DNA of 32,000 bases from Nostoc punctiforme PCC 73102 (GCF_000020025.1 NC_010628.1:6450001-6482000); one strand, 5' to 3'; positions 6,351 through 32,000 are shown, counted from the stretch's first letter. Notes: generated from the letters alone by a model not told the origin. Made by a program: numbers and translations.

Positions 6351-6453
6351 GGAGAATTACTGCGATCGCATCCCTCGCAAACTCAGGCTGTTGATTCAGC
6401 TTTGCACTTGGAATGCGATCGCACTCAATTAACGATCCCATCAAGGTCTATAA

Positions 6454-10652: not shown

Positions 10653-11276
10653 GATTACTTCATTTAAAGCTACAGGTTTTGCTGCACAAGACTTTTTAGT
10701 TTAGTCTTTATCTGTCGCAATTCAGCAAAAATTATTCGTTTTAATATCAACTTAACCTTTACTTACGCTACGTGCTGATGGTATCGAAGCGTAAGTTGCT
10801 CCCGGTGGGTACGGCCTCCTAAGTATTTGAAGATGAGTGGCTGTTTGCACAACCCTGTCGCTAAATATAAAGCATTAATAGCACTAAGCACTTATATATT
10901 TATTAATAGTTAAGAGTTACTCAAATCTTATCAGCTTCAGCAATTTTCTTGGTGGGGTAGAAACGCTTGCATTGTTGGCTGGGCTGCAACTTTAGCTGAG
11001 GCAATGCTCTGCACAACTAAGAAATGAGCTAGTAACTATTTTATCTGTAGAATCTTAGTTATTTATCAATACCACAAGTGGTATCACTTAGTCAAAATAA
11101 AATATTTACATCATCAAGATTATCGGATCGGAATAAGTAGGTAGACGTAAATCCTAATCATTAATCTACGTGCGTTACCAAACAGCCCTTTTGTAGATAT
11201 TGCTAGTGGAGAAATCGCTATAATTCTGATGAGCCAAATAGAGCCAAATATCCTTTGATTTTTGGGGAAACCAGCG

Positions 11277-16031: not shown

Positions 16032-17221
16032 AGCTAATCGGCACTAAAGTTGCATAATAATAATGTGAAGTAGTATAAAAGCAGCTATGCCGCCACCAGC
16101 CAAAGACTTTTTAACGCCGTCACAAGTCGGCAAGCTACAGCAGGCTTTAAAAGAAAGCGGCCAACCACACGTCAGGGAAAGAATTTTAATTATTCTTCTA
16201 CAAAATGATGGGAAGCCGCAACACGAAATTGCTAAATTTTTAGGCTGCTCGCCTAGAACCGTGGCGTATTGGTGTATGCATGGAGATCCAGACAATTTAG
16301 AAACCCTGCATAATAAAAGAGAGTACGAACATTATCGAAAAGCTACTCCTGAATATATTGAACTGTTATTAAAAACTGTTGACCAAGAACCATCAGATTT
16401 AGGGTATGAATTTGGCAAATGGACGGCAGAGAGATTAACCACATATTTAACCGAAAAAACAGGGATAGATTTAAGTAGCTCTCAAGTAAGGAGGATATTA
16501 AAGCGAAAAAAGTATAGTTATATCTGGGCTAAATATGATCTGGAAGATAAACAAAAACCCCAAGAAAGAGCCAAGTTCAAGGAGAAACTTACTCAATATT
16601 TATCAATAGCGCGAGAAGAACCAGACCGTTTGCAGGTATGGTTTTGGGACGAGAGTGGTTTTAGTTTACGAGTGATTCGCCGAAAGAACTGGGGTAAAAA
16701 AGGAAAACGCAAAAATGTTCTATTGCTTCGGCGCTGTGGTCGCGTTAATGTGATGGGAGCAATCAGAGAATCAGACCGAAAACGGGTATGCTTTTTTGTC
16801 AAAAAAGGTAATGCAGATATTTTTTATGAGCAATTACAACAATTGAATGAATTAATTAAACAAGAGTGGGCTAGTATTGGGAACCTTGGTAAAGATTTCT
16901 CCAAGCATGGGCCGAAGATTATTTTAATTTTAGACAATGCTAGTTTTCATAAGCGCAAAGATATTATAGCTAAAATATCTGAAGAATTTCCAAACTTTGT
17001 TTTAGAATTTTTGCCTGCTTACAGCCCTGATTACAACATTATCGAATTAGTTTGGCACTCATGTAAAGAATATATTGCTCACCGCCTGTTTAAATCAGTA
17101 GATGAATTGCAAGCACTGCTAGATAAACTATTAAACCAAGGTGAGTTACTGATTAAGTGGCATCGGAAAATCAAAAATAAAGGCAATGTCAACTATGTTG
17201 CAGCTTAAATGCTGATTAGCT
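16032..17221 (+). mobile_element. IS630-family insertion sequence, apparently intact, flanked by a TA target-site duplication
   Basis: Left end agctaatcggcactaaagttgcataataat and the reverse complement of the right end, agctaatcagcatttaagctgcaacatagt, form imperfect terminal inverted repeats (about 22/30). TA lies at 16030-16031 and again at 17222-17223. The element carries a single DDE transposase ORF. Confidence 0.85.
16087..17208 (+). CDS. IS630-family DDE transposase
   Basis: 373 aa. It has an N-terminal HTH region, then WFWDESGF (D), LILDNASFHK (D) and PAYSPDYNIIELVW (E). This is the IS630/Tc1-mariner-like DD(35)E layout. The stop codon lies inside the right IR. Confidence 0.9.
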   Translation: MPPPAKDFLTPSQVGKLQQALKESGQPHVRERILIILLQNDGKPQHEIAKFLGCSPRTVAYWCMHGDPDNLETLHNKREYEHYRKATPEYIELLLKTVDQEPSDLGYEFGKWTAERLTTYLTEKTGIDLSSSQVRRILKRKKYSYIWAKYDLEDKQKPQERAKFKEKLTQYLSIAREEPDRLQVWFWDESGFSLRVIRRKNWGKKGKRKNVLLLRRCGRVNVMGAIRESDRKRVCFFVKKGNADIFYEQLQQLNELIKQEWASIGNLGKDFSKHGPKIILILDNASFHKRKDIIAKISEEFPNFVLEFLPAYSPDYNIIELVWHSCKEYIAHRLFKSVDELQALLDKLLNQGELLIKWHRKIKNKGNVNYVAA

Positions 17222-17797
17222 TATTGTGGCTAATTGCCGGAATGATTGATGCGAAATCTGTTGGTGAAATTCTTGATTACTTGATGGTGCAAGATGGCGA
17301 AGAGGAAAAATTTATCAACTTGTTTTTAGCAGCTAAGTGTCTTGCAGAAGTGAGAAATCGTTCGGTAATTGCGTCAGTGGCTAATAAATTATTTGGCAAG
17401 GTAAAAGACTTAACCAAATATGACCTCTGGTATTATTACACCTATGACAATGCAGAAGAAACTCAGCTAGTTCAGACTCTCAAAATTCCTCAAGAACTTT
17501 TAGATATATTGAATGAATCATCTTGAGCAGATTTTCATGGTGAACTGTTACCCAAGCTGAAAACATGAGAACAGTAAAAAGTAGCATAACTCCAAAAAAG
17601 CGATCGCTAGACATCTACCCAAATTCTCATAAATTATTCTCGAAAATTACGCACCCAGAACACCGTAAGCATTGCCCGTAATATCGTCTAGCGGTAGTTG
17701 CAGTAAACAAAGCCGACTTTGATCGCAACAATCAGATAGAAAGTAGTTTTTCAATCCACTTAATTTAGTGTTAACAGCTAGATCAGAGGTGGCATGA

Positions 17798-18883
17798 ATG
17801 CAATTACAACAGACACAACTTTTAGAGGAAACTCTCTGGAAAGCCGTTCTCAACCGAGATGCCACAATTGACGGCAAGTTTTTCTACGGTGTTCGTTCCA
17901 CAGGCATTTATTGCCGACCTATTTGCCCTAGTCGCAGACCAAATCGCAATCAAGTTTGTTTTTTCCAGTCAGCAAAAGAGGCTCAAAACGCAGGTTTTCG
18001 ACCTTGCAAGCGCTGTCAGCCACAATTTGAAACAGTTCCAAATCCAGCCAAAGCGAAAATCTTAGCAGTATGTCGATACATTGAAGCACAAAGCGATCGC
18101 ATCCCCACCCTCTCAGAATTATGCTCTCAGGTGGAAATGAGTCCTAGTTATCTGCAAAAGGTATTCAAGCAAATAATTGGTGTATCCCCTTTTCAATATG
18201 CAGATGCACTGCGTAGCCAACGATTAAAGCAGCGTCTCCAGTCAGGGGAGGAAATTGCTCATGCAGTTTATGACACGGGGTATGGTTCAAGTAGTCAAAT
18301 TTATGAAAAAGCACCGAAGCAACTGGGAATGACACCAAAAATTTACCAACAAGCTGGAAAGACAATCAACATTGTCTATGCGATCGCTCCATGTCCGTTA
18401 GGATATTTACTGGTGGCAACAACAGACAAGGGGATTTGTGCCGTTAAACTAGGTGATGAAGCAGACAAACTTGAACACATCTTGAATCAAGAATTTCACC
18501 AAGCGCACATCATACGTGATGACCACATACACAAAGAATGGATACAAGGAATCCTCGACTTGATTGCGGGAGATGAAACACATCTCGATTTACCACTCGA
18601 TATCCGTGGAACAGCATTTCAGAAACAGGTTTGGCAAGTATTACAAAAAATTCCCTATAGCGAAACTCGTACCTACACTGATATTGCCCGTGATATTGCC
18701 AAACCCCAAGCAGTCCGGGCGGTAGGAAATGCTTGTGGAGCTAACCCGATCGCAGTGATTATACCCTGTCATCGGGTGCTGCGGAGTGATGGCAGTCTTG
18801 GTGGTTATCGTTGGGGGATTGAGCGCAAACAAAAACTGCTTGTACAAGAATCGAAATTGAGCAAAGATGACTCAAATACCTGA
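17798..18883 (+). CDS. ada: Bifunctional Ada: methylphosphotriester-DNA methyltransferase / AraC-type regulator / O6-methylguanine-DNA methyltransferase
   Basis: 361 aa. It has the N-terminal Ada Zn-binding motif FFYGVRSTGIYCRPICPSRRP, an AraC-type HTH (SPSYLQKVFKQIIGVSPFQY) and the C-terminal MGMT active site IIPCHRVL. Confidence 0.9.
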   Translation: MQLQQTQLLEETLWKAVLNRDATIDGKFFYGVRSTGIYCRPICPSRRPNRNQVCFFQSAKEAQNAGFRPCKRCQPQFETVPNPAKAKILAVCRYIEAQSDRIPTLSELCSQVEMSPSYLQKVFKQIIGVSPFQYADALRSQRLKQRLQSGEEIAHAVYDTGYGSSSQIYEKAPKQLGMTPKIYQQAGKTINIVYAIAPCPLGYLLVATTDKGICAVKLGDEADKLEHILNQEFHQAHIIRDDHIHKEWIQGILDLIAGDETHLDLPLDIRGTAFQKQVWQVLQKIPYSETRTYTDIARDIAKPQAVRAVGNACGANPIAVIIPCHRVLRSDGSLGGYRWGIERKQKLLVQESKLSKDDSNT

Positions 18884-19505
18884 ACTAGAATCATTGACTG
18901 AAGAAAGTCTCACCCGTGGTTTAATGGTGCTTGCCAATATTGACAGCGATTTGGCTCGGATTTTAGAAACACTCGGGCCTCCACCAATATGGTCAAGAGA
19001 ACCGGGTTTTGCAACGCTTCTGTGCATAATTCTGGAACAGCAAGTTTCCGTAGCAGCTGCGAGGGCTGTATTTAACCGTCTATGTGGGGTTATTGTACCG
19101 CTAACGCCAGAAAATTTTCTGACATTGGATGATGTTCAATTAAGAGGGATTGGATTCAGTCGGCAAAAGATTCTATACTCTCGTGGATTAGCGAATGCGA
19201 TCGCAAGCGATCAGCTTGACCTCAGCAAGCTGGAAAGAATGGACGAAACTACTATCAGAACTGAGTTAAAGCGCCTCAAAGGTATAGGAGACTGGACAGT
19301 TGATATTTATTTACTCATGGCGCTGCAACGTCCTGATGTCTTTCCTAAAGGCGATTTAGCAATCGCGATCGCTTTACAAAAACTCAAAAACTTGGCGACA
19401 CGTCCAACACCAGTTCAACTGGAAGGAATGACACAGCACTGGAGACCGTGGCGAGCAGTTGCGGCAAGACTTCTATGGCACTATTACCTAAGTAATCCCA
19501 AATAA
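18867..19505 (+). CDS. alkA: DNA-3-methyladenine glycosylase II family (HhH-GPD)
   Basis: 212 aa. It has the helix-hairpin-helix LKGIGDWTVDIYLLMAL followed by PKGDLAI. Its start overlaps the ada stop by 17 nt. Confidence 0.8.
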   Translation: MTQIPELESLTEESLTRGLMVLANIDSDLARILETLGPPPIWSREPGFATLLCIILEQQVSVAAARAVFNRLCGVIVPLTPENFLTLDDVQLRGIGFSRQKILYSRGLANAIASDQLDLSKLERMDETTIRTELKRLKGIGDWTVDIYLLMALQRPDVFPKGDLAIAIALQKLKNLATRPTPVQLEGMTQHWRPWRAVAARLLWHYYLSNPK

Positions 19506-19518
19506 TTGCTCCTTTTCC

Positions 19519-19544
19519 CTTGGCGCACTTGGCGCACTTGGCGG
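19519..19544. repeat. 9-bp tandem repeat cttggcgca x3 (the last unit degenerate)
   Basis: cttggcgca cttggcgca cttggcgg read directly, just after the alkA stop. Confidence 0.8.
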
Positions 19545-19567
19545 TTCGTATAATAAATATAAACTAA

Positions 19568-20566
19568 ATGGTAGAAAATCAATTAATCCTAACAACAGAA
19601 AAGTCTGATAAAACTTTAAACATCCTGCCGATAATCATAGTAATAATTGCATTATTAGCTTTATCTTCAACAGCAATATTGATTAAAATTGCTCTTAGAG
19701 AAATGAGCGCTACTGCTACATTCTTTAATCGTTTATGGATAGCGACTATTATCTTTGGATTCTGGAATGGAATTAACCAAGCACGGACTCAGATTAAAGA
19801 TGATCAACCTGTATTACCACAGCAGCCTTATCCAATCAAAGAGATAGCGTTTTTAATAGCAGTGGGTCTAGTTCATGTATTAGGTAGATTATCTTGGACT
19901 TGGGCGCTAACCCAGACTGGTGCTGCGAATGCTAATGCGTTAGGTAGTCTTAATCCGCTATTTACTACATTAGGAGGATGGCTATTTTTTAATCAGATTT
20001 TTGGGCGCAAATTTATCATCGGTCTGATCTTAGCCATAATCGGCGCGATCGCAGTTGGGTTTGAAGATTTATTACGTTCTAATAATAATTTTACAGGTGA
20101 TGCTGTTGCCTTGATCTCGTCGATATTTTATGCAGCAAACTTTTTACTAATCGAGCAAATCCGCAATAAGTTTTCAATTATTACTATCCTTCTGTGGCGC
20201 TGTGTCATCGCAACTTCATTAATGGTTCCAGTAGTACTAATCTTTGAAAAACAACCTTTTCCAGTTTCCTTGTCAGGGTGGTTAGTAGTATTTGCACTAG
20301 CTGCTATTTGCGAATCTTTGGGTCATGGGCTAATTGTATATAGCCTGAAAACTTTTTCTTCAGGATTCATCTCTTTACTTTTGTTACTCAATCCAGTGAT
20401 TGTTGCTATTCTTGCTTGGATACTTTTCTCGGAAAACTTGAGTATTTTTAACTTGCTAGGGTTGGCATTAATTGTAGGGGGTATATATTTAGCGATTTCT
20501 AATAAAGAATCTATCAAATCTAGCGTTAATCCCCCCATACAATCTCTACAGAAAAGTGAATTTTAA
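19568..20566 (+). CDS. DMT-superfamily (EamA-like) transporter
   Basis: 332 aa with about 10 predicted hydrophobic helices in two similar halves. The sequence character is typical of EamA-type transporters. Confidence 0.75.
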   Translation: MVENQLILTTEKSDKTLNILPIIIVIIALLALSSTAILIKIALREMSATATFFNRLWIATIIFGFWNGINQARTQIKDDQPVLPQQPYPIKEIAFLIAVGLVHVLGRLSWTWALTQTGAANANALGSLNPLFTTLGGWLFFNQIFGRKFIIGLILAIIGAIAVGFEDLLRSNNNFTGDAVALISSIFYAANFLLIEQIRNKFSIITILLWRCVIATSLMVPVVLIFEKQPFPVSLSGWLVVFALAAICESLGHGLIVYSLKTFSSGFISLLLLLNPVIVAILAWILFSENLSIFNLLGLALIVGGIYLAISNKESIKSSVNPPIQSLQKSEF

Positions 20567-20574
20567 CAAGTTCG

Positions 20575-20621
20575 TAGTAAGGACTTTAGTCTTTATTTTC
20601 TAAATACTAAAGTCCTTACTA
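20575..20621. terminator. Perfect 16-bp hairpin between convergent genes (tagtaaggactttagt/actaaagtccttacta)
   Basis: The left arm at 20575-20590 and the right arm at 20606-20621 are exact reverse complements, with a T-rich 15-nt loop. It lies between the transporter stop and the dapF stop. Confidence 0.7.
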
Positions 20622-20671
20622 TAAACCCTCAAAATAACTCTAATACTTGCGTAATGCCAGTGATAAGTCGG

Positions 20672-21511
20672 TTACAGTTTCCCCGTGAAGACTCGTTCAG
20701 CCGGGCCTGTCATGTAAACCCGTTGGTCGATTTCTGACCATTCAATTTGCAAGGGACCACCAGGTAATTCTACAGTGGCAGTGCGATCGCATTTCCCGGT
20801 TAACACACCAGCCACTAAAGAAGCGCAAGCACCAGTCCCACAAGCTAATGTAATCCCAGCACCCCGTTCCCACACCCGCATTTTCAAATAGTCACGGCGT
20901 ACCACTTGAATAAATTCAGTATTTATGCGTTGGGGAAAAGCTGGGTGATGCTCAAATTTCGGGCCTATGCTTTCTAGTTCAATTGCTGCTACATCTTCCA
21001 CAAAGGTAATGCAGTGAGGATTTCCCATATTTACACAAGTTACTTCCCAAGTTTTCCCCGCCACTTCCAACGGCACAGAGATTACTTTTTCTTCAACAGG
21101 TGCAAGAGTAGTAGGAATTTCGCCAGCGAGTAATCTGGGTAAACCCATGTCTACTTTAACTAGACCATCAGATAAGAGTTGGGGAGTCATTACACCACCC
21201 AAAGTATGAATGCGATATGAATCTTTATTTCGGGATTGACCTTCTAAATCTGCCAAAAAGCCAGCTAAACAGCGAATGCCATTGCCACACATTTCTGGTT
21301 CTGAACCATCAGAATTAAAAATCCGCATGGTATAGTCAGTGCCGTTTTCTCCAGGTAGAGCAAAAATGACACCATCAGCACCGATACCAAAATGGCGATC
21401 GCATAATTGGATAGCTTGCTCTGGAGTCAAAACGGGCAAAGATGACGAGCGATTGTCAATCAGAATAAAATCATTGCCCAGACCATGATACTTAGTAAAT
21501 TCGATTGCCAT
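20672..21511 (-). CDS. dapF: Diaminopimelate epimerase
   Basis: 279 aa. It has [19 protein letters not shown] and both catalytic Cys motifs (EMCGNGIRC and [10 protein letters not shown]). Confidence 0.95.
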
Positions 21512-21580
21512 TTTCTCAAGGATGAATTATCAAGGATTAGTTACTCTTTATTTTGCCTTGTAGGTTCATCTTTACTAAAA

Positions 21581-21799
21581 ATGCTTACCGAATTTGACAC
21601 CACTTTACCCAGTATTAGACAAGTCCAAAACCTGATTAAACAAACAACGCCAGTTGAGTTAAAGCTGGTGACTCAGGATGTACTCACAGGAAAGGTTGTA
21701 TGGCAAGATCCACAGTGTATCTGTATTGCTGATGAAAACAGTCAGCAAACCACCGTTTGGAAACAAGCGATCGCATACATCAAACCGAAAACAAGTTAG
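21581..21799 (+). CDS. hfq: Cyanobacterial-type Hfq
   Basis: I use the ATG at 21581. The track's upstream start would overlap dapF. The 72-aa MLTEFDTTLPSIRQVQNLIKQTTPVELKLVTQDVLTGKVVWQDPQCICIADENSQQTTVWKQAIAYIKPK closely parallels the roughly 70-aa Synechocystis/Anabaena Hfq as I remember it (LPSVRQVQ...PVE.KL..G....G...WQD). Confidence 0.8.
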   Translation: MLTEFDTTLPSIRQVQNLIKQTTPVELKLVTQDVLTGKVVWQDPQCICIADENSQQTTVWKQAIAYIKPKTS

Positions 21800-21947
21800 A
21801 AATAGAATTTTGCTTGCGATCGCTATAAGATTTTGGTTAGCGATCGCTAGTTTGTATACAATACACCCTGGTATCATGATTCATTCTGTTAGCGATAGCT
21901 AGGGTTTAGCCTATTCTGACTCTTGAATTCTGCTTGATAAGAGAGAA

Positions 21948-23150
21948 TCAATGCAAAAGTTCCCAATCTTGCAGCATTAAAATAGCATCTCTATACAACG
22001 ACAAATCCACCTGGTGGACTTCTATTCCTTGCCCAATTCCTTCTAGAAGGGTAATTGTCAAATTTCCTCCCAAGTGTTCGCGAAACTCGGTTAGCCCCCT
22101 AAATAGACAATCGGGATGGTCTAGTCGATCTAATTGCTCTGTCAGCGCCGGCACGTATAATGTGAATCCTAGCTTACTGAGCGTATATAGAACACTTTGC
22201 CACTCAGATTTCAAGAGTTGACCTGTTAAATATGAATAGGTCGTATCCAAAGCAATGCCGATCGCTACAGCTTCGCCGTGACGTAAACTGTAATTAGTTA
22301 AATGCTCCAGTTTATGAGCAGCCCAGTGTCCAAAATCCAAAGGACGCGATGAACCCATTTCAAATGGATCGCCGCCACCAGCAATATGCTCTAAATGCAA
22401 TTGCGAACAGCGATAGATCAATCTTTCCATTATGTCCATATCCCGATTAGCCAATTTATCGGCATTAGTCATAATGAAATCGAAGAAATCTGCATCTTTA
22501 ATCAGCGCTACTTTCACCGCTTCTGCAATACCCGATCGCCAATCTCGATCGTCAAGGCTAGTCAGAAAATCAAAGTCATTTAAGACAGCATAAGGCGGCA
22601 TGAATGTACCCAAAAAGTTTTTCTTGCCGAAAGCATTGATTCCGTTTTTTACCCCTACACCCGAATCGTTTTGCCCTAATACTGTTGTCGGTACTCGTAG
22701 CAGCCGAATTCCTCGATGAGCCGTTGCTGCTGCGTATCCTACCATATCTAGGACGGCTCCACCTCCAATTGCTAAAACGTAGGAGTGACGGCACAATCCA
22801 GCTGCATTGATTCGCTGATGAATTTGTTCTATAAATCTAGAATGGTTCTTGACTGCTTCTCCACCAAGAACTACTATCGGCTCACCGCTCAGTGTTAGTA
22901 CATTTTCATAATACTGAGCATAGACTGATAATTTTTTTAGTAAGCCATCTTGGTACTGTAAAAATCCTCCATCTACCACTGCTAGTACTTGCTTTGGGGT
23001 TGTTTCTCCATCTGCGGCAATCACTTGTGCAAATAAAGGATTATCTAACTGAAACAGACCTCTAGTGAAGTGAACATCATAGTTGAAGGTCACGCGGACA
23101 CATTGGTTAATCGGTTGCAGATTAAGAGCGGTTTTTTGTTTAATAGCCAT
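21948..23150 (-). CDS. eboD: DHQS-like sugar-phosphate cyclase (sedoheptulose-7-phosphate cyclase family), EboD-like by context
   Basis: 400 aa. It has GGGAVLDMVGYAAATAHRGIRLLRVPTTVLGQNDSGVGVKNGIN and HGEAVAIGIALD, typical of the 3-dehydroquinate-synthase superfamily. It is divergent from eboA-B-C-E-F. No mys or aro partner genes are adjacent. Confidence 0.75.
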   Translation of the reverse strand: MAIKQKTALNLQPINQCVRVTFNYDVHFTRGLFQLDNPLFAQVIAADGETTPKQVLAVVDGGFLQYQDGLLKKLSVYAQYYENVLTLSGEPIVVLGGEAVKNHSRFIEQIHQRINAAGLCRHSYVLAIGGGAVLDMVGYAAATAHRGIRLLRVPTTVLGQNDSGVGVKNGINAFGKKNFLGTFMPPYAVLNDFDFLTSLDDRDWRSGIAEAVKVALIKDADFFDFIMTNADKLANRDMDIMERLIYRCSQLHLEHIAGGGDPFEMGSSRPLDFGHWAAHKLEHLTNYSLRHGEAVAIGIALDTTYSYLTGQLLKSEWQSVLYTLSKLGFTLYVPALTEQLDRLDHPDCLFRGLTEFREHLGGNLTITLLEGIGQGIEVHQVDLSLYRDAILMLQDWELLH

Positions 23151-23623
23151 TTAAAGTATTATTTTTTAGTAACTGTGAATACATCCACTATTGCAATTAA
23201 AATTGAAACTAAATTCAACAGAATTAAGTCATCAAATACTTCAGCATTTAAATGATTTACTAGACAGCCAAAATTATTAAATTAATCATAATTTTCAATT
23301 GTATTTATCCTAAACTACAAAGTTGACAATAACATTAATTTACAACTTTATTGATGCCTATCGTTTATATCTGAAGTTAGCAATGGATATTCTTATTTAG
23401 ATAAGATTCTAATTTTTTTCCGTAAGTTAATTCTAGAGTTTATCTAATTAAAATAGCATCTTTACAATATCTTCTCTAAAATCGGGAAAAGTTTATAGAT
23501 TCAGTAAAGTTACGAACACAGTAGTATATTATTAGCTGTTTTAAACACAAAGTATCAAGTTTAGTGGTAGATTTTATACTTAGTTGTCACAAAAAAGTTG
23601 GGCAACTTCTCCTGAAATTCATC

Positions 23624-24487
23624 ATGAGTAAAGTAAACAAGTTACTGCATCACTGGCTGTTAAAGTCTGTTTCAGAGAAAGCTTTTGCTTGGCTGGAGCA
23701 TAAGCAGGCACAAATTTCTAGCGGCGCTGCTGAAAGAGTTTTTTTCACGGCATTTAGTGCTGTACCGCGTTATCTAGGTAAACAGGATTTGCAGCTAACA
23801 TTCCAGGACTTGGAAGCAGCAGAAGATGTGATTCCCGGTTGGTATCCTGGTAATTGGAGTGTAGATCAAGCAGGTCGCACACTCTTGCTTCTAGCTTTGC
23901 CCCACGATGATGCCCAGGGGTATGTGCGATCGCTCGATCAAGTCTTCTCCACTGCTGATATGGGAGAGTTAGTTGCTCTTTATCAAAGTTTGCCGTTATT
24001 ACCACATTCAGAGTTACATCGCCAGCGCGCTGCTGAGGGAATTCGCAGCAATATGAGTAATGTATTCCAAGCCATAGCACTACGTAACCCTTATCCAGCA
24101 AATTATTTAGACAATGCTGCTTGGAATCAGATGGTGCTGAAGGCTGTGTTTGTCGGCAGTCCGTTGCATCTAATTTGGGGACTAGACCGACGTGCTAACC
24201 CAGAATTAGCGAAGATGTTAGCAGACTATGCCCATGAACGTTGGGCAGCTAAACGCTCAGTTACGCCAGAACTTTGGCGACCTGTAGGGCGGTTTGCGGA
24301 TAGTGCGATCGTTACGGATTTGGAAAAAGTACTGGCTAATGGCGATACAGCCGAACAAGAAGCCGCAGCATTAGCTTGTGCCGAGTCTCCTTTACCCCAA
24401 GCGCAAGCATTACTTTCTCGTTACCCAGATTTACAGTCATCTATCCAACAAGGTAATCTGACTTGGAACAATTTTAGCCGCAAGTGA
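23624..24487 (+). CDS. eboA: EboA-like protein
   Basis: I prefer the ATG at 23624 (MSKVNKLLHHW...) to the track's GTG. AAEGIRSNMSNVFQAIALRNPYPANYLDNAAWNQMVLKAVF and YAHERWAAKRSVTPELWRPVG fit my memory of the EboA family. It sits in the first position of an ebo-type operon. Confidence 0.6.
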   Translation: MSKVNKLLHHWLLKSVSEKAFAWLEHKQAQISSGAAERVFFTAFSAVPRYLGKQDLQLTFQDLEAAEDVIPGWYPGNWSVDQAGRTLLLLALPHDDAQGYVRSLDQVFSTADMGELVALYQSLPLLPHSELHRQRAAEGIRSNMSNVFQAIALRNPYPANYLDNAAWNQMVLKAVFVGSPLHLIWGLDRRANPELAKMLADYAHERWAAKRSVTPELWRPVGRFADSAIVTDLEKVLANGDTAEQEAAALACAESPLPQAQALLSRYPDLQSSIQQGNLTWNNFSRK

Positions 24488-24534
24488 GTGGGGAGTAGCA
24501 GTGGAGATAAGGGAGATGAGGAGAATAACCCATT

Positions 24535-24578
24535 CCCAATGCCCAATGCCCAACAATATCCAATGCCAAATACCCAAT
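24535..24578. repeat. Heptamer tandem repeats (cccaatg family) in the eboA-eboB spacer
   Basis: cccaatg cccaatg cccaaca atatcca atgccaa ataccca read directly. This is STRR-like 7-nt periodicity. Confidence 0.7.
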
Positions 24579-24588
24579 TATTAAAACC

Positions 24589-25497
24589 ATGATGTATATC
24601 GATCCTCACATTCACATGTGTTCCCGTACTACTTACGATTACTTAGTAATGCGGGAATATGGTATTGTCGCCGTTATTGAACCAGCCTTTTGGTTAGGAC
24701 AACCCCGAACTAATGCTGGCTCATTTAAAGACTACTTCAGTAGTCTTGTAGGCTGGGAACGCTTTCGTGCTAGTCAGTTTGGCATCCAACACTACTGCAC
24801 AATCGGCCTAAATCCGAAAGAAGCTAACAATGAAGCACTAGCAACAGAAGTTATGGAACTGCTGCCACTTTATGCCTGTAAAGAAGGAGTTGTTGCCATT
24901 GGTGAAATTGGCTATGACGACATGACAGAAGCAGAAGATAAGTACTTTTGTCAACAGTTAGAATTAGCCAAAGAACTCGATATGTTAGTACTAATTCATA
25001 CGCCCCATCGGAATAAGAAGGCGGGTGCTATTCAAAGCATGGAACGCTGCATTGAATATGGCTTAGATCCTTCACAAGTAGTTATCGATCACAACAACGA
25101 AGAAACTGTTGAAGAAGTATTAGGACGGGGCTTTTGGGCAGCTTTTACGATTTACCCACAGACGAAGATGGGTAACGCCCGGATGGTTGAAGTTGTCCGT
25201 AAGTATGGATGTGATCGCATCATTGTAGATAGTAGTGCTGATTGGGGCATCAGCGATCCTTTGGCAGTTCCAAAAACGGCTCAGTTGATGTTAGATAGGG
25301 GCATTCCTGAAGAACACGTGCGAGCAGTTTGTTATGAAAACGCCTTAGCTGCTTATAGCCAAACTGGGCAGATGAAAGCGTCAGACTGGCTCAATCCTCA
25401 ATCTATCGATCAGCGTCAGCTGTTCAGTGGTAATTCTGTGTTGCGGGGACAGGAACCAGGAATCAAATCAGTTTCAGATTTTGTGTTGATTGAGTAG
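24589..25497 (+). CDS. eboB: TatD-family metal-dependent hydrolase (EboB-like)
   Basis: 302 aa. It has the N-terminal YIDPHIHM HxH metal motif, GEIGYD and LIHTPH, typical of the TatD/amidohydrolase fold. Confidence 0.8.
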   Translation: MMYIDPHIHMCSRTTYDYLVMREYGIVAVIEPAFWLGQPRTNAGSFKDYFSSLVGWERFRASQFGIQHYCTIGLNPKEANNEALATEVMELLPLYACKEGVVAIGEIGYDDMTEAEDKYFCQQLELAKELDMLVLIHTPHRNKKAGAIQSMERCIEYGLDPSQVVIDHNNEETVEEVLGRGFWAAFTIYPQTKMGNARMVEVVRKYGCDRIIVDSSADWGISDPLAVPKTAQLMLDRGIPEEHVRAVCYENALAAYSQTGQMKASDWLNPQSIDQRQLFSGNSVLRGQEPGIKSVSDFVLIE

Positions 25498-25576
25498 GAA
25501 ATTAAGATTGGTATGGGGATTACAAGAGATATTTTCATCTTAATTTTGAGAAATTAGTAGACACGGAGGTAGATAA

Positions 25577-26509
25577 GTGAATGTTGCAAGCTTAAATTTT
25601 CAAAGCTGGCGGGGTTATCTGGAATTGATGCGTCCTGCTAATATTGTTACTGCTTGGGCGGATATTCTTGTAGGTTTCGCTGCTTCCGGCTCTGGGATTA
25701 TTTTTGCTCAATTAATCAATGGAGAAGCAAGTTTTAACATACTAATTCCATTAGCTTGGTTGTTGTTAGCTACAAGTGGTTTATACGGCGGCGGTATAGT
25801 TTTTAATGATGTTTTTGATGCAGAATTAGATGCAAAAGAGCGACCAAATAGAGCAATTCCTAGCGGTCGGGTATCTCGTGAAAATGCTACTTTGTTGGGG
25901 AGTATACTGTTTGCGATCGGGATTATAGCTGCTTTTCAAGTATCGTTGGTGAGTGGTGCGATCGCTATATTCATCACTCTTTCATCTCTTTTGTATGATT
26001 CACTCGCCAAACATCATCCTTTTTTCGGCCCTTTAAATATGGGTTTGTGTCGTGGCAGTAACTTATTATTAGGCGTAAGTGCTGTACCTGCAATCATTGG
26101 AGAACGTTGGTATTTAGCACTAATTCCTGTTCTTTATATTGCTGCTATCACCGCAATTAGTCAGGGTGAAGTTCACGGTGGTAAGAAGATTACGGGAGTT
26201 TTAGCAGTACTGCTGATTGCAATAGTTCTGACGGCAATTTTGGCTTTAGGATTATTGGATGAGTATACAGCGATCGCAGCACTACCATTCGCTATTTTCT
26301 TAGCTATCAGAATCTTACCTAATTTTATCAAAGCGGCGCGGGAACCGATAGCCGGAAATATCCGAAATGCGGTAAAAATAGGCGTTTTATCTCTAATAGT
26401 ATTAGATGCAACGGTTGCATCTGGTTTTGCTGGTTTGTATTACGGTTTATTAGTTCTAAGCTTGCTACCCATTTCGATGAAGTTAGCAAAAGTATTTGCT
26501 GTTACTTAA
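25577..26509 (+). CDS. eboC: UbiA-superfamily prenyltransferase (EboC-like)
   Basis: 310 aa. The GTG start is preceded by ggagg 8 nt upstream. It has the Asp-rich motif NDVFDAELDAKERPNRAIPSG and about 8-9 hydrophobic helices. Confidence 0.85.
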   Translation: MNVASLNFQSWRGYLELMRPANIVTAWADILVGFAASGSGIIFAQLINGEASFNILIPLAWLLLATSGLYGGGIVFNDVFDAELDAKERPNRAIPSGRVSRENATLLGSILFAIGIIAAFQVSLVSGAIAIFITLSSLLYDSLAKHHPFFGPLNMGLCRGSNLLLGVSAVPAIIGERWYLALIPVLYIAAITAISQGEVHGGKKITGVLAVLLIAIVLTAILALGLLDEYTAIAALPFAIFLAIRILPNFIKAAREPIAGNIRNAVKIGVLSLIVLDATVASGFAGLYYGLLVLSLLPISMKLAKVFAVT

Positions 26510-26548
26510 ATTTGAATGTATACACCCAGTAATACCATTAATCGGCTA

Positions 26549-26574
26549 TAGGGGCGCATAGATGTGCGCCCCTA
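26549..26574. repeat. Perfect 10-bp GC-rich hairpin (taggggcgca tagatg tgcgccccta) in the eboC-eboE spacer
   Basis: Exact inverted repeat read directly. No T-run follows, so it is not a classical terminator. It is of the small dispersed hairpin-repeat type. Confidence 0.7.
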
Positions 26575-26656
26575 ACTATGAATATCTAGCAAGTATTTTG
26601 TGAAATAGTTTAAGCCAAAGAAAATAGATTACATATACAAGGAATAAAGCTAGAAA

Positions 26657-27880
26657 ATGAAAATTAAAAACAACAATTTTCACTTAACTTATTGCAGCAA
26701 TATTCACCCTGGTGAAAGTTGGCTAGAGGTTTTCGCTAATTTAGAAAAGTATATTCCCGAACTCAAATCACGTTTATCGCCTAAAGAACCTTTTGGTATT
26801 GGCTTGAGGTTAGCTAATGTTGCTGCAAAACAACTTTTAGAAAGTAATAACTTAGCTAAATTTCAAACTTGGCTAACTCAACAAGATTTATATGTTTTCA
26901 CCTTAAATGGATTTCCTTATGGTGGATTCCATCGGCAAATTGTAAAAGACCAAGTTTATGCACCAGATTGGTCTACACAAGAACGGGTTAATTATACATT
27001 AAACTTGGCACACATTTTAGCTAGTCTATTACCCCAAGGACTTGATGGCGGAATTTCTACACTACCATTATCCTATAAACCTTGGTGGGTAAAAGACCAA
27101 AGAACTTTCGAGGCTGTTCTGAAAAAGAGTTCTTTGAACATAGCATCAGTTGTTGTAGAAATGATTCGCATCAGCGAGAAAACAGGAAAGATACTCCATA
27201 TTGATTTAGAACCTGAGCCTGATGGTTTAATTGAAAATACCTCAGAAGTAATTGATTTTTATCAAAATTGGTTATTGCCAATTGGCAGTAACTACTTATC
27301 AGAAAAATTAAATATAGAACAGAATTTAGCAGAAACTAAATTGCTAGAACACGTTCGTATTTGCTATGACACATGCCATTTCTCAGTTGAATATGAAGAA
27401 CCACAATCTGTGTTTGCGCGTTTTCAATCAGCAGGAATTAAAATTGGTAAAATTCAAATCAGTGCAGCAATTCAAGTAAAAATACCTGCTGATGTTGAGA
27501 AGCGTAGTTTAATAGTTGAGCGCTTACGCCCTTTTGCAGAATCTACTTATCTCCACCAGGTAATAGAACGTCGCACTGATGGTACACTGCATCACTATCC
27601 TGACTTAATAACTGCACTACCACATTTAGAGCAATCTTTAGCTGAAGAATGGCGGACTCATTTTCATGTCCCAATTTTTATTCATGATTATCAAATTTTG
27701 CAGTCTACCCAAGATGACATCGCTACTGTTTTAAATCTACTTCAGACAAACAATGCTTGCTCACATTTAGAAATTGAAACTTACACTTGGGATGTATTGC
27801 CATCAGAAATGAAGATAGATTTACTAACTTCTATTCAGCGTGAGTATGAGTGGGTATTAAAAGAATTTGCCGCAAATTAA
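26657..27880 (+). CDS. eboE: Xylose-isomerase-like TIM-barrel protein (EboE-like)
   Basis: 407 aa. The size, the position in the cluster, and motifs such as HIDLEPEPDG and ICYDTCHF are consistent with the EboE / sugar-phosphate isomerase-like family. Confidence 0.7.
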   Translation: MKIKNNNFHLTYCSNIHPGESWLEVFANLEKYIPELKSRLSPKEPFGIGLRLANVAAKQLLESNNLAKFQTWLTQQDLYVFTLNGFPYGGFHRQIVKDQVYAPDWSTQERVNYTLNLAHILASLLPQGLDGGISTLPLSYKPWWVKDQRTFEAVLKKSSLNIASVVVEMIRISEKTGKILHIDLEPEPDGLIENTSEVIDFYQNWLLPIGSNYLSEKLNIEQNLAETKLLEHVRICYDTCHFSVEYEEPQSVFARFQSAGIKIGKIQISAAIQVKIPADVEKRSLIVERLRPFAESTYLHQVIERRTDGTLHHYPDLITALPHLEQSLAEEWRTHFHVPIFIHDYQILQSTQDDIATVLNLLQTNNACSHLEIETYTWDVLPSEMKIDLLTSIQREYEWVLKEFAAN

Positions 27881-27895
27881 CAGGAAATTAATTTC

Positions 27896-29269
27896 ATGCA
27901 GAAAACAGTTGTTCTAAATATCGTGGGATTAACGCCCAGTTTACTAGGAGAAAGTACACCGTTTTTATCTTCTTGGGCTACGAAAGGACAGGTAGCGTCA
28001 ATTGGAAAAGTGTTACCTGCTGTGACTTGTTCGGTTCAGGCTACTTATTTAACAGGAAAATTGCCTGATGAACATGGGATTGTCGCTAATGGTTGGTATT
28101 TCCGCGATGAATGTGAAGTGAAGTTTTGGCGACAATCTAATAAGCTAGTACAAGCTCCCAAAGTTTGGGAAATAGCTAAATCAATTGATCCAAATTTCAC
28201 TTGTGCCAACCTTTTTTGGTGGTACAACATGTATTCCTCAGTAGATTATGCGATTACGCCGCGCCCGATGTATCCCGCAGATGGGAGAAAATTACCTGAT
28301 ATTTATACACATCCTAGTGATGTGCGATCGCAAATTCAATCTGATTTAGGAAACTTCCCTCTGTTCGATTTCTGGGGGCCAAAAACTACTATTAGTTCTA
28401 GCCAATGGATTGCCAATTCCGCAAAATGGATTGAGGAACGCTACAGCCCGACATTATCACTAGTTTATCTACCACATTTAGATTACTGTCTGCAAAAATT
28501 TGGTAACAATCAAACACAGATTCAAGCAGATTTGCGAGAAATTGATGCTGTTTGTGGCGATTTAATTGAATATTTTCAAGTACGTAATATTCAGGTAATT
28601 ATTCTTTCTGAGTATGGGATTACGCCAGTTTCTAAAGCTGTGGATTTGAACCGCGTACTACGGGAAAACGGTTTAATTGCTGTGCGGGAAGAATTAGGGC
28701 GAGAACTGCTCGATTTTGGTGCTAGCATTGCCTTTGCTGTTGCCGATCATCAAATTGCTCATGTGTATGTGAACGATCCAGCATACATCCCGAAAGTGCG
28801 ATCGCTTTTAGAAGCGACTGAAGGCGTGGCGCAGGTATTGGATGAAGAGGGTAAACAAGCCTACCATCTCGATCATCCTAGATCGGGAGAGTTGGTGGCG
28901 ATCGCTAAATCTGACGCTTGGTTTACCTATTATTATTGGCTTGATGATGCGAAAGCGCCTGATTTTGCTAGAACTGTAGATATCCACCGCAAACCTGGTT
29001 ACGATCCTGTAGAACTTTTCCTCGATCCGCAAATAAAATTTCCTCAAGGAAAAATTGCTCTCAAGTTACTTAAGAAACAACTGGGTTTTCGCTATTTAAT
29101 GGATGTGATTCCTCTGGATGCTTCCCTGGTGCGTGGCTCTCACGGTAATATCACCACTTCTCCAGATGAAGGGCCTCTATTTATCACCCATCAAACTCAC
29201 CTAATTAACGAACATCAAATTGAAGCGACAGATGTTTGCTCGTTGATTCTCAAACATTTAAATACCTGA
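27896..29269 (+). CDS. eboF: Alkaline-phosphatase superfamily / nucleotide pyrophosphatase-phosphodiesterase-like protein (EboF-like)
   Basis: 457 aa. It has VVLNIVGLTPSLL, LPAVTCSVQATYLTG (the NPP-type nucleophile region) and VRGSHGN. It starts 15 nt after eboE. Confidence 0.8.
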   Translation: MQKTVVLNIVGLTPSLLGESTPFLSSWATKGQVASIGKVLPAVTCSVQATYLTGKLPDEHGIVANGWYFRDECEVKFWRQSNKLVQAPKVWEIAKSIDPNFTCANLFWWYNMYSSVDYAITPRPMYPADGRKLPDIYTHPSDVRSQIQSDLGNFPLFDFWGPKTTISSSQWIANSAKWIEERYSPTLSLVYLPHLDYCLQKFGNNQTQIQADLREIDAVCGDLIEYFQVRNIQVIILSEYGITPVSKAVDLNRVLRENGLIAVREELGRELLDFGASIAFAVADHQIAHVYVNDPAYIPKVRSLLEATEGVAQVLDEEGKQAYHLDHPRSGELVAIAKSDAWFTYYYWLDDAKAPDFARTVDIHRKPGYDPVELFLDPQIKFPQGKIALKLLKKQLGFRYLMDVIPLDASLVRGSHGNITTSPDEGPLFITHQTHLINEHQIEATDVCSLILKHLNT

Positions 29270-29276
29270 AAGGCAG

Positions 29277-29302
29277 TATAGAGGCTGTATATTGCCTCTA
29301 TA
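29277..29302 (+). terminator. Hairpin after eboF (tatagaggc/gcctctata)
   Basis: Perfect 9-bp stem with an 8-nt loop, 8 nt after the eboF stop. It has no clear T-run. Confidence 0.4.
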
Positions 29303-29330
29303 TCCTCCTACAATACAAAAAAATTTATGG

Positions 29331-29387
29331 TAATTCATAATCATATCGAGTATGATTTATATATAAACTCATTATGACTATGAATTA
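29331..29387. promoter_or_regulatory. 20-bp imperfect inverted repeat (17/20) with a 17-bp spacer, about 90-150 bp upstream of the catalase start; candidate operator
   Basis: taattcataatcatatcgag (29331-29350) compared with the reverse complement of ctcattatgactatgaatta (29368-29387), which is taattcatagtcataatgag. The arms contain an inner aatcata/tatgatt dyad and Fur/PerR-box-like ATAAT/ATCAT hexamers. Confidence 0.35.
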
Positions 29388-29477
29388 AATTGTTCTATTC
29401 AGTAGGCAACCGTCAATCTACTGACTAAAATCTACTGTGGCCAATCTGAGTAACTTACATGGAGAGCTTCTTTACGC

Positions 29478-30971
29478 ATGACTGAACCCCAAAACTTGAC
29501 AACTGCTGATGGTATTCCAGTTAGCGATAACCAGAACTCACTCACTGCTGGAGCGCGTGGCCCTGTATTAATCCAGGATTTCCACCTTATAGAAAAGCTG
29601 GCTCATTTCAACAGAGAACGTATTCCTGAAAGAGTTGTTCACGCTAAAGGTGCTGCTGCTCACGGCACTTTGACTATTACCAATGACATTACCCGCTACA
29701 GTAAAGCCAAACTTTTTTCTGAAATTGGCAAGAAAACGGAACTTATCTTGCGTTTTTCTACAGTTGGCGGAGAAAAAGGTTCAGCAGATGCCGAGCGTGA
29801 CCCTAGAGGTTTTTCCCTCAAGTTTTATACTGAGGAGGGTAACTGGGATCTTGTAGGTAACAATACCCCTATTTTCTTCATCCGCGACCCTTTGAAGTTT
29901 CCTGATTTTATCCATACCCAAAAGCGCAATCCGCAAACCAATTGCAAAGACCAGAATGCAAAGTGGGATTTTTGGTCACTCAGTCCAGAATCGCTTCACC
30001 AGGTGACGATCCTCTTTTCAGACCGGGGAATTCCCAAAACCCATCGACACATGGACGGTTTTGGTAGCCACACCTTCAGTTTAATTAATGCCGAGGGCGA
30101 TCGCGTTTGGTGTAAATTTCACTTTAAGACGCTGCAAGGACATCAAACCTTGACAGAGGAAGAATCCGCTAAGATTAAGGGCGAAGATCCCGATCATGCG
30201 ACTCACGATTTGTTTGAAGCGATCGCTAAAAAAGACTATCCTAAGTGGCGGATGTGTATTCAGGTGATGACCGAGGAGCAAGCGGAAAAACATCCTGACA
30301 ATCCTTTTGACTTGACCAAAGTTTGGAAACAAGGCGAATATCCTTTAATTGAAGTCGGGATATTAGAGCTAAATCGTAACCCAGAGAATTATTTTGCCGA
30401 AGTTGAGCAAGCCGCTTTTAGCCCTAGTGCAGTGGTTCCTGGCGTTAGTTTCTCTCCAGACAAAATGCTGCAAGCTCGAATTTTTTCTTACCCAGATGCT
30501 CAACGGTATCGCTTGGGTGGTAACTATCAGCAACTACCCGTTAACCAGCCCAAATGTCCAGTGATGCATTATCAGCGAGATGGCTTTATGGCATCGGGGA
30601 ACAACGGCGGTAGCGTTCCTAACTATGAACCGAATAGTGCTGAGGGTACGCCCAAAGAAAATCCAGCTTATGCAGAACCACCTAGTCATTTGGGCGATGT
30701 CACAGTCGATCGTTACAGTCATCGTGAAGGAAACGACGATTATACTCAAGCAGGTAATTTGTATCGGTTACTAACTCCTGAGCAGCAGGAGCGTCTTGCT
30801 AAAAATATTGTCGGCAGTCTCTCTCAAGCAAGAGAGGACATCCAAATGCGTCAACTTTGCCACTTCTTCCGGGCAGATGTTTCTTATGGTCGTCGTGTAG
30901 CTGAAGGATTGGGCATTGCGATCGATCCTTCAATGTTTTCTCATGATGCTCAACCTGTAGGTAACTGGTAG
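29478..30971 (+). CDS. Monofunctional heme catalase (small-subunit type)
   Basis: 497 aa. It has the distal-His motif [20 protein letters not shown] and the proximal-Tyr motif [14 protein letters not shown], with the typical catalase core throughout. Confidence 0.95.
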
Positions 30972-30987
30972 CCTCGTAGTTTCGTCG

Positions 30988-31015
30988 GGTGTGTTATGCC
31001 GTAGGCTAACGCACC
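30988..31015 (+). repeat. Hairpin after the catalase (ggtgtgtta...taacgcacc)
   Basis: 9-bp stem with one G-U, plus an inner gcc/ggc pairing. It is of a Nostoc dispersed-hairpin type and may act as a transcript 3' end. Confidence 0.4.
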
Positions 31016-31056
31016 GAAAACCTAGATGGTGGGTTACATACTTAAGCTAAATTTAG

Positions 31057-31085
31057 ATCCCCGATTTCTTGAAGAAGTCGGGGAT
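31057..31085. repeat. Dispersed hairpin repeat atccccga-tttcttgaagaag-tcggggat
   Basis: Perfect 8-bp stem. This sequence class (translating as RFLEEVGDL / PDFFKKSGI) is a recurrent non-coding hairpin in Nostocales genomes as I recall. Confidence 0.5.
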
Positions 31086-31103
31086 TTGATAAATGAAAAC
31101 AAA

Positions 31104-31343
31104 CTCGTTAACGGAGATAAAAGACTCATTAATGGAGTTCAAAGGCTCTTTAATGAGTATCAAAGACTCATTAATGGAGTTCAAAGGCTCATTAATGGAG
31201 TTCAAAGGCTCATTAATGGAGTTCAGAGGCTCATTAATGGAGTTCAGAGGCTCATTAATGGAGTTCAGAGGCTCATTAATGGAGTTCAAAGGCTCTTTAA
31301 TGAGTATCAAAGGCTCATTAATGGAGTTCAGAGGCTCATTAAG
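31104..31343. repeat. 21-bp tandem minisatellite, about 11.4 units, three unit variants
   Basis: The unit types are ctcattaatggagttcaaagg (A), ...cagagg (G) and ctctttaatgagtatcaaag(a/g) (B). The order is degenerate-A-B-A-A-G-G-G-A-B-G-partial. Repeat-spanning ORFs appear on both strands, a repeat artefact. Confidence 0.95.
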
Positions 31344-31585
31344 TAGATAAACAAAAAAATTTACAGTTATTACGATCGCACCCTTCGCAAAGCATATCCT
31401 AGAGAAGTAGTTGTAGGGGTTGCGATCGCATTATTTTGCTTCACTGCATTTGCAATGACATTGTGTAATTAATTATCTTGCCTACTTATGAGACTGGGAT
31501 TTGAATCCCAGGCGGGTAATGCAGCCGATGCAGATTACCTAAATTACTGAAACCAATGGGAGACAAAAGCCACCATTCTCTTGAA

Positions 31586-32000
31586 TCAAGACTGATGATT
31601 CCGCCGCAAGTCTTCCAGATTTTCACGAATGGTTATTGTATCGGGATGATTTGTCCCCAAGCATTGTTCAGCGATCGCCAAAGCTTCAATGCACAAAGGT
31701 TGGGCTTCCCTGTAAATTCCCTGTGAATAATAGAGTAATGCCAAATTGTTCAGGCTAGTTGCCACATCGGGGTGTTCATCCCCCAGCAGGCGTTTTCTCA
31801 TGGACAAAGCTTCGATGTACAAAGGTTTGGCTTCGCTGTACCTTCCCTGTGAATCGTAGAGGAGTGCCAAATTGTTCAGGCTACTTGCCACATCTGGGTG
31901 TTCATCCCCCAGCAGGCGTTTTCTCATCGACAAAGCTTCGATGTACAAAGGTTCGGCTTCGCTGTACCTTCCCTGTAAATAGTAGAGGAGTGCCAAATTG
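31586..32000 (-). CDS. TPR-repeat protein (kinesin-light-chain-like 42-aa TPR units), C-terminal part only; the gene continues past the right edge
   Basis: It has repeating LLGDEHPDVA(S/T)SLNNLALLY.SQGRYSEA.PLYIEALSMRKR units. The frame is still open at position 32000. Confidence 0.85.
   Translation of the reverse strand, partial: NLALLYYLQGRYSEAEPLYIEALSMRKRLLGDEHPDVASSLNNLALLYDSQGRYSEAKPLYIEALSMRKRLLGDEHPDVATSLNNLALLYYSQGIYREAQPLCIEALAIAEQCLGTNHPDTITIRENLEDLRRNHQS

Follow-up and report, generated by a model that had tools for sequence, protein, structure and literature searches.

The stretch of DNA analysed in this work (hereafter the window) is a 32-kb segment of the chromosome of Nostoc punctiforme PCC 73102 (NC_010628.1:6450001-6482000), in which all positions are counted from the first nucleotide. 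The window harbors the ebo locus of this cyanobacterium, i.e., Npun_R5231 plus Npun_F5232-F5236, an assignment that is essentially certain. On the basis of what is known for homologous enzymes and of one recent preprint (bioRxiv 10.64898/2026.05.21.724671), the locus can be read, with a probability of about 0.6, as a small-molecule biosynthetic cassette for a saccharoquinoline/thallusin-type meroterpenoid. The loss of scytonemin in ebo mutants would then be an indirect effect of the absent metabolite, the Ebo proteins not acting on scytonemin itself.

Organization of the ebo locus and identity of its proteins

The seven successive proteins from EboD through the catalase encoded downstream of eboF are each 100% identical to the N. 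punctiforme PCC 73102 / ATCC 29133 entries ACC83559-ACC83565. The designation Npun_R5231-Npun_F5236 is explicitly used for the ebo cluster in PMC9127174, and the layout has been in print since Yurchenko et al. 2016, where it is described as a "satellite five-gene cluster" with a second, reverse-oriented eboD paralogue upstream of eboA; the further eboD copy of N. punctiforme adjoins the scy operon (PMC5133447). The first-pass annotation of this DNA, made from the sequence alone, had described an eboD gene diverging from eboA-B-C-E-F over an AT-rich spacer. The coordinates (Table 1) and the intergenic gaps (473 nt for eboD/eboA, 101 for A/B, 79 for B/C, 147 for C/E, and 15 for E/F) proved to be exact to the base, and the NDVFDAELD motif that had been noticed in EboC was located at residues 77-85 of this protein. 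The start codon of eboA is the ATG at 23624; an alternative, longer open reading frame (ORF) begins with a GTG at 23564. The six genes do not form a co-directional A-B-C-D-E-F operon, eboD being inverted and located upstream of eboA. This is a known Nostoc-type variant, and under the literature definition (PMC5133447) it does not affect the ebo membership of the locus.

In order to place the locus among its relatives, use was made of a species-representative genome collection, in which EboE relatives are encoded in 574 stretches. The comparison was carried out on 80 of these, namely 51 loci of the Nostoc clade (L001-L051; EboE identity 80-94%) and 29 loci of other cyanobacteria (L052-L080). 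In nearly all of the 80 loci, eboE lies among other ebo genes.

Three of the proteins exceed the cut-offs of dedicated NCBIfam models: EboA (NF035937 EboA_family, 380 bits, cut-off 320), EboC (NF035940 prenyl_rel_EboC, 411 bits, cut-off 250), and EboE (NF035939 TIM_EboE, 521 bits, cut-off 250). The Pfam family PF28008 EboA is recorded for a protein identical to EboA, while the Pfam scan of the EboA of the window itself gave no match. EboB matches the Pfam family PF01026 TatD_DNase with 64.9 bits (gathering score 27). NCBIfam holds no dedicated EboB model, and the orthology of this protein is based on its conserved position and on its identity (76-98%) to the eboB products at ~75 cyanobacterial ebo loci. 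EboF matches PF01663 Phosphodiest with 220 bits, and its position after eboE is conserved in nearly all the retrieved loci. Multiple hydrophobic segments are present in EboC, and none in the other five Ebo proteins. The profile hidden Markov model searches that the first-pass annotation had proposed as a check have returned Ebo models for EboA, EboC, and EboE, and the TatD and Phosphodiest families for EboB and EboF. The complete ebo-type cluster that it had recognized is confirmed, in all its six components, by model scores and conserved synteny.

The sixth protein, EboD, deserves closer attention, since its names point elsewhere. Its match to NCBIfam NF004852 (606 bits, cut-off 333) involves a model that bears the legacy name "3-dehydroquinate synthase", and the NCBI protein name of EboD is likewise "3-dehydroquinate synthase". 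Both names would suit a chance juxtaposition of an ordinary AroB with five unrelated plus-strand neighbours. This reading is refuted by several lines of evidence. The score of EboD against the aroB equivalog TIGR01357 is 218 bits, under the cut-off of 305. NF004852 is also matched, with 603 bits, by the product of the eboD gene that lies inside the operon, between eboC and eboE, of [Scytonema hofmanni] UTEX 2349 (L080), and the EboD of the window is 65-77% identical to the in-operon eboD products of other cyanobacteria. The same six genes co-occur in the ~80 retrieved loci and, as detailed below, the substrate-contact residues of 3-dehydroquinate synthase (DHQS) are replaced. The first-pass annotation would have abandoned its own interpretation if the cyclase had grouped with AroB or with DDGS, or if no Ebo model had been matched; since EboD falls below the aroB cut-off and the Ebo models are passed, the region is an ebo cluster.

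Among the solved sugar-phosphate cyclase structures, the scores of EboD range from 85 to 145 bits, with 145 for DHQS (5EKS), 125 for the EEVS ValA (4P53), 94 for DDGS (5TPR), and 90 for DOIS (2D2X). The alignment indicates that EboD retains the metal ligands and the core catalytic residues (D162, K168, N178, E210, K213, H275, H279, and H291). The DHQS residues K250, R264, and N268 align to L253, S268, and D272 of EboD, and the DKK motif aligns to R358-E359-H360; these DHQS positions are those that we take, from the literature on the A. nidulans DHQS and ValA structures, to be carboxylate and phosphate contacts. EboD also carries the sequence "DFGH", as in the EEVS ValA, the DHQS counterpart being "NLGH". 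The comparison of active-site residues that the annotation had called for thus reveals altered DHQS substrate-contact positions. By the scores on the curated models, the identity to in-operon orthologues, and the published cyclase tree (PMC5133447), EboD is a cyclase of the EboD clade, distinct from AroB, EEVS, and DDGS.

Table 1. Coordinates of the ebo genes, of the associated elements, and of the published deletions mapped onto the window
Feature	Position	Strand	Length	Description
eboD (Npun_R5231)	21948-23150	-	400 amino acids (aa)	DHQS-like sugar-phosphate cyclase; 100% identical to ACC83559/WP_012411511
Divergent intergenic spacer	23151-23623		473 bp	25.2% GC; presumed promoters for eboD and eboABCEF
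eboA (Npun_F5232)	23624-24487	+	287 aa	Soluble protein without known catalytic domain; = ACC83560
eboB (Npun_F5233)	24589-25497	+	302 aa	TatD-family metal-dependent hydrolase; = ACC83561
eboC (Npun_F5234)	25577-26509	+	310 aa	UbiA-like membrane prenyltransferase; GTG start; = WP_041565644
eboE (Npun_F5235)	26657-27880	+	407 aa	TIM-barrel protein (xylose-isomerase-like); = ACC83563
eboF (Npun_F5236)	27896-29269	+	457 aa	Alkaline-phosphatase / nucleotide pyrophosphatase-phosphodiesterase family; = ACC83564
Hairpin	29276-29303	+		10-bp stem and 8-nt loop, 7 nt past the eboF stop; -20.2 kcal/mol, z = -3.7 versus shuffles
Catalase gene (ACC83565)	29478-30971	+		Downstream neighbour; Pfam Catalase and Catalase-rel
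Whole-ebo deletion	23771-29134		5364 bp	Primer mapping; equal to the published size
eboA deletion	23771-24376		606 bp	Primer mapping; equal to the published size
eboB deletion	24638-25357		720 bp	Primer mapping; equal to the published size
eboE deletion	26937-27704		768 bp	Primer mapping; equal to the published size

Function of the locus and origin of the scytonemin phenotype

The first-pass annotation had regarded the product and the enzymology of ebo as unresolved, a view that is out of date given the reports on EboD and on thallusin. In 2024, EboD was reported to be a DEI synthase with mannose-6-phosphate as substrate. In the bioRxiv preprint of May 2026 (10.64898/2026.05.21.724671), based on 35 strains, ebo genes were found in all 27 thallusin producers and in none of the 8 non-producers. 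The deletion of eboB, C, E, or F abolished thallusin in Stieleria maiorica, labelled L-aspartate went into the quinoline core, and the EboC proteins from three phyla farnesylated a 6,7,8-trihydroxyquinaldate ester. In the same work, thallusin was reported from both the ebo-carrying cyanobacteria tested, N. punctiforme and one other, and the scytonemin phenotype of the ebo mutants was read as indirect. The thallusin core set, formed by eboB, eboC, eboE, and eboF, is present in its entirety at the N. punctiforme locus.

On these grounds, the following pathway can be proposed. EboD would make the cyclitol DEI. From DEI and L-aspartate, a hydroxylated quinoline carboxylate would be formed by three soluble proteins, EboB (a TatD-type hydrolase), EboE (a TIM-barrel protein), and EboF (of the phosphodiesterase/phosphatase type). 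The carboxylate would be farnesylated, and possibly cyclised, by the membrane protein EboC, giving a saccharoquinoline/thallusin-type meroterpenoid that would be released from the cell. EboA might act as an accessory protein.

It is known that, in N. punctiforme, the deletion of the whole cluster, or of eboA, B, C, E, or F singly, leads to the absence of scytonemin, with the monomer retained in the cytoplasm, and that the ebo genes of this organism are distal to the scy operon (PMC6282210). The deletion primers listed in Table S1 of Klicki et al. 2018 (PMC6282210) were mapped onto the window. Exact matches were obtained for 17 of the 26 primers, and the other nine map where expected, at the respective genes, with 3-4 differences that are mostly due to letters lost from the PDF-derived text of the table and not to sequence divergence; the deletions that they delimit are reported in Table 1. 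A family scan of the window proteins detected no scy, trp, or tyr gene across the whole 32 kb, and it confirmed the Hfq-related protein, DapF, and the catalase that the first-pass annotation had placed on the two sides of the cluster. The annotation had concluded that this was a clean copy in which ebo could be studied independently of scytonemin. That conclusion fails, because the window holds the very locus whose deletions abolish scytonemin, to which the published deletions map precisely, the scy operon being merely distant; the window must not be handled as a scytonemin-free ebo copy. The knock-out of eboC or eboD had been put forward as a check; mutants lacking eboA, B, C, E, or F already exist. 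The membrane-anchored carrier lipid that it had inferred, one of the explanations weighed below, is essentially the model of Klicki et al. 2018 (PMC6282210). The locus, its layout, the knock-outs, and the scytonemin link have in fact all been published before, this being the reference cyanobacterial ebo locus. As for its regulation, the cluster lies outside the control of the scytonemin two-component regulator (PMC9127174) and eboE is reported to show no induction by ultraviolet A (UVA) at 48 h. This agrees with a function of ebo of its own, apart from scytonemin.

The phenotype has been explained in other ways. In the model of Klicki et al. 2018 (PMC6282210), the Ebo enzymes build, in the cytoplasmic membrane, a prenylated cyclitol, glycolipid-like carrier that accompanies the scytonemin monomer to the periplasm without binding it covalently; the passage may be through a capsular-polysaccharide ABC exporter. 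The build-up of cytoplasmic monomer and the loss of scytonemin when one of the genes eboA, B, C, E, and F is removed from this very locus (PMC6282210) are in favour of such a carrier. So are the nature of EboC, the sole membrane protein of the set, whose nearest relatives are lipid prenyltransferases of the DGGGP-synthase type, that of EboF, whose phosphodiesterase/phosphatase type is compatible with a phospholipid-like chemistry, and the location of ebo within the scy operon in other cyanobacteria. We nevertheless consider this model rather unlikely, given that high-performance liquid chromatography-mass spectrometry found no lipid-conjugated intermediate (PMC6282210), that ebo is common in organisms without scytonemin, that EboC farnesylates an aromatic quinoline acceptor and a soluble secreted product needs eboB, C, E, and F (bioRxiv 10.64898/2026.05.21.724671), and that the Nostoc ebo genes escape the scytonemin regulator (PMC9127174). 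It has also been proposed, in the study cited in PMC5133447 as the origin of the "satellite cluster", that the Ebo proteins are themselves the catalysts of the last stages of scytonemin synthesis, i.e., of oxidation and dimerisation; the proposal was reportedly based on UVA induction and on the presence of ebo inside scy operons in other cyanobacteria. The chemistries of a sugar-phosphate cyclase, a prenyltransferase, and a phosphodiesterase are unsuited to oxidative dimerisation (PMC5133447), and the prevalence of ebo in organisms that do not make scytonemin speaks against direct catalysis as well. Moreover, the monomer accumulates in the cytoplasm of the mutants, which suggests a defect in transport and not in chemistry. 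Direct catalysis is thus already largely refuted, and we regard it as very improbable.

A product different from thallusin has to be considered, too. The cyanobacterial ebo genes might lead to a related DEI-derived prenylated metabolite whose function is linked to ultraviolet or oxidative stress; it could, for instance, be a cofactor, either redox-active or iron-binding, that the periplasmic scytonemin enzymes require. A cofactor role was raised by Yurchenko et al. (PMC5133447), the preprint suggests "related ebo-associated metabolites" in stress responses (bioRxiv 10.64898/2026.05.21.724671), and the Nostoc layout is distinct, in that eboD is inverted, another eboD adjoins the scy operon, and a catalase gene is conserved downstream in 29/44 loci. 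The report of thallusin from N. punctiforme itself and from the other cyanobacterium tested (bioRxiv 10.64898/2026.05.21.724671) makes such a lineage-specific product quite doubtful, as do the Ebo equivalog models passed by these proteins, which are common to other lineages; the linkage to the catalase, in turn, is possibly mere inherited synteny within one genus.

The reading of ebo as a cassette for a thallusin-type meroterpenoid, which we prefer, has weak points of its own. The link to thallusin comes from a single preprint that is not peer-reviewed, whose genetic tests were made in Stieleria, and in which the strain name is printed as "PCC 71302". The steps carried out by EboB, EboE, and EboF and the condensation with aspartate are not assigned even there, and the oxidation of saccharoquinoline to thallusin has no known enzyme. 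The second eboD beside the scy operon (PMC5133447) may also contribute, next to the Npun_R5231 copy. With these reservations, the question shifts from what ebo makes to how a DEI-derived, thallusin-type pathway controls the export of the scytonemin monomer in Nostoc. This can be tested at once, because N. punctiforme ebo mutants exist.

Spacer, transcript, and surrounding genes

In an alignment of 45 Nostoc-clade sequences, the half of the spacer that is proximal to eboA (~23400-23623) shows a per-column conservation of 0.8-0.94, against 0.5-0.7 in the half proximal to eboD. The eboA leader contains a conserved imperfect inverted repeat, AGTTGTC-N12-GGCAACT (23582-23607), preceded by the near-invariant TTTTATACTT (23572-23581); the repeat may represent an operator or, alternatively, a hairpin in the leader. 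One of its pairs is U-G, U-A, or C-G among Nostoc species, which is too little for a structural call. When the last 95 nt upstream of eboA were compared with RNAalifold in 44 distinct Nostoc-clade sequences, no consensus structure emerged, just the 7-bp imperfect inverted repeat being conserved. The whole window returned no match in Rfam at the gathering thresholds, so that the 473-bp spacer contains neither a riboswitch nor a leader of a known type. A consensus scan of positions 21500-31400 was uninformative, with 14 promoter-like and 4 terminator-like sites versus 24 and 8, respectively, in shuffled sequence; no terminator-like site was found by it between the ebo genes, in the context of a scan that detected fewer sites than in shuffled sequence overall. 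In six Nostoc-clade loci (L001, L026, L030, L031, L042, and L043), the eboD-eboA spacer measures 623-836 bp versus the usual ~475 bp, which implies insertions in the divergent promoter region, possibly of small mobile elements.

Proteins exactly matching the Ebo proteins of the window were found in public assemblies from ~90-120 blocks of sequencing runs. All the 22 public contigs retrieved are at least 99.97% identical to the window, and 19 of them are 100% identical. A contig of 13,955 bp, present in eight samples, covers positions 17194-31148; its ends fall in an IS630 element and in a tandem repeat of 21 bp, in keeping with a genomic origin, and it spans the spacer, so that the spacer itself can be assembled. 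Most of the other contigs break within the spacer. Those on the eboD side end at 23253-23278 (five contigs), 23373, and 23393, and those on the eboA side start at 23541-23560 (6/11) or later, most of them extending from the leader of eboA, without a break, over eboABCEF and the catalase gene. These breaks resemble those of RNA sequencing assemblies and might reflect an untranscribed promoter core of ~260 nt and one eboABCEF transcript. The short intergenic gaps, the lack of intergenic terminator-like sites in the scan, and the continuity of the public contigs from ~23541 through eboF make it probable that eboABCEF is transcribed as a single unit that is driven from the conserved half of the spacer on the eboA side, eboD being transcribed divergently. 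The hairpin that follows eboF (Table 1), close to which one public contig ends (at 29319), is a possible 3' end of the operon transcript; the evidence for it is weak, because no U-tract is adjacent and the consensus terminator scan was silent.

Immediately downstream of eboF, a gene for a (haem) catalase is present in 29 of the 44 Nostoc-clade loci whose sequence extends far enough, and in none of the 25 non-Nostoc cyanobacterial ebo loci; the gap between the two genes is mostly 207-670 nt in the Nostoc clade. Its conservation in this position may be plain inherited synteny. That the catalase is, in Nostoc, a lineage-specific partner of ebo in the oxidation of saccharoquinoline to thallusin, or in the detoxification of the resulting peroxide, and that the metabolite so formed, instead of a lipid carrier, is needed for the export of the monomer, appears improbable.

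The other products encoded in the window include GlmS, PrmA, SerA, a GGDEF protein, an IS630 transposase, Ada, an AlkA-like glycosylase, and an EamA transporter. The IS630-family transposase gene (16087-17208, plus strand; 291 bits) is followed by an ORF of 105 aa (17209-17526). The public contigs of genomic type stop at 17194, within this element, and the synteny with other Nostoc genomes ends there too. The ORF of an Ada-type methyltransferase/regulator (17798-18883) overlaps that of the AlkA-like glycosylase (18867-19505) by 17 nt (18867-18883), which suggests a translationally coupled pair for alkylation repair. Between glmS and prmA there is a low-GC stretch (4677-7761; 0.34-0.37 over 4001-7000) encoding a protein of 557 aa with a weak AIPR/MzaE-like match (55 bits, cut-off 1050) and, on the opposite strand, an ORF of 435 aa without family match; this stretch could be a small defence or mobile island.

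Several tandem repeats are also present. On the eboF side, a 21-bp repeat (31104-31342; 11.4 copies, 90% match) lies in an ORF (31026-31346, plus strand) encoding a protein with the heptad "NGVQRLI", which matches TIGR03057 (X-X-X-Leu-X-X-Gly heptad repeat); several frames are open on both strands in this region, and most public contigs end within the repeat, at ~31148-31196. A 126-bp repeat (31674-32000; 2.6 copies, 91% match) is located in a TPR-repeat gene (ORF 31586-31996, minus strand) that runs off the end of the window. In-frame 21-bp repeats were found at 11878-12002 (6.0 copies, 98%) in the ORF 11262-12080 (plus strand) and at 14912-14996 (4.0 copies, 90%) in the ORF 14845-15666 (minus strand), neither ORF having an NCBIfam match. 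The prmA-serA intergenic region contains ~5 copies of the heptanucleotide AGTGCTG (8890-8947), which we take to resemble the short tandemly repeated (STRR) sequences of heterocyst-forming cyanobacteria.

Comparison with other ebo loci and related systems

The inverted position of eboD upstream of eboA-B-C-E-F is found in 42/42 Nostoc-clade loci in which eboD was retrieved, and it is therefore a genus-wide rearrangement and not a peculiarity of the window. In the 29 loci of other cyanobacteria, the genes are arranged on a single strand in the order A-B-C-(insert)-D-E-F. The hfq/dapF flank is shared by just 2 of the 39 loci in which the sequence reaches 1.5 kb or more upstream of eboD. The presence of scy genes in the upstream flank of other Nostoc genomes was considered and discarded, the flank in one of them (L004) consisting of genes for a glycosyltransferase, CtpB, and HigA.

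With the "satellite" cluster of N. punctiforme described in the literature (Soule 2009; Yurchenko 2016; Klicki 2018, 2022), the window is the same DNA, with zero differences. At the level of the single enzyme, EboD has in common with AroB and the other sugar-phosphate cyclases the fold family (Pfam DHQ_synthase and DHQS_C), the metal ligands, and the Lys/Asn/His core; it differs in the replacement of the carboxylate and phosphate contacts of DHQS, and its reported substrate is mannose-6-phosphate. The locus of [Scytonema hofmanni] UTEX 2349 carries orthologous genes, whose six Ebo products are 61-82% identical to those of the window. There, however, the genes lie on one strand in the order scyE-scyF-eboA-B-C-glycosyltransferase-tyrA-eboD-E-F-trpE-C-A-B-D, whereas the window has no scy, trp, or tyr genes.

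The full ebo set is also present in the EDB ("edible") cluster of Pseudomonas fluorescens NZI7, whose mutants, as described in the literature, lose a secreted or capsule-associated nematode repellence; this cluster, which was set beside the window by its description only, has three extra genes and a different phenotype. The canonical eboABCDEF of Bacteroidota and eustigmatophyte plastids, reported as thallusin genes (bioRxiv 10.64898/2026.05.21.724671), comprises the same six families as the window. Unlike in this canonical arrangement, in N. punctiforme eboD has moved from its position between eboC and eboE and is inverted upstream of eboA, a second eboD is located elsewhere in the genome, and a catalase gene follows eboF.

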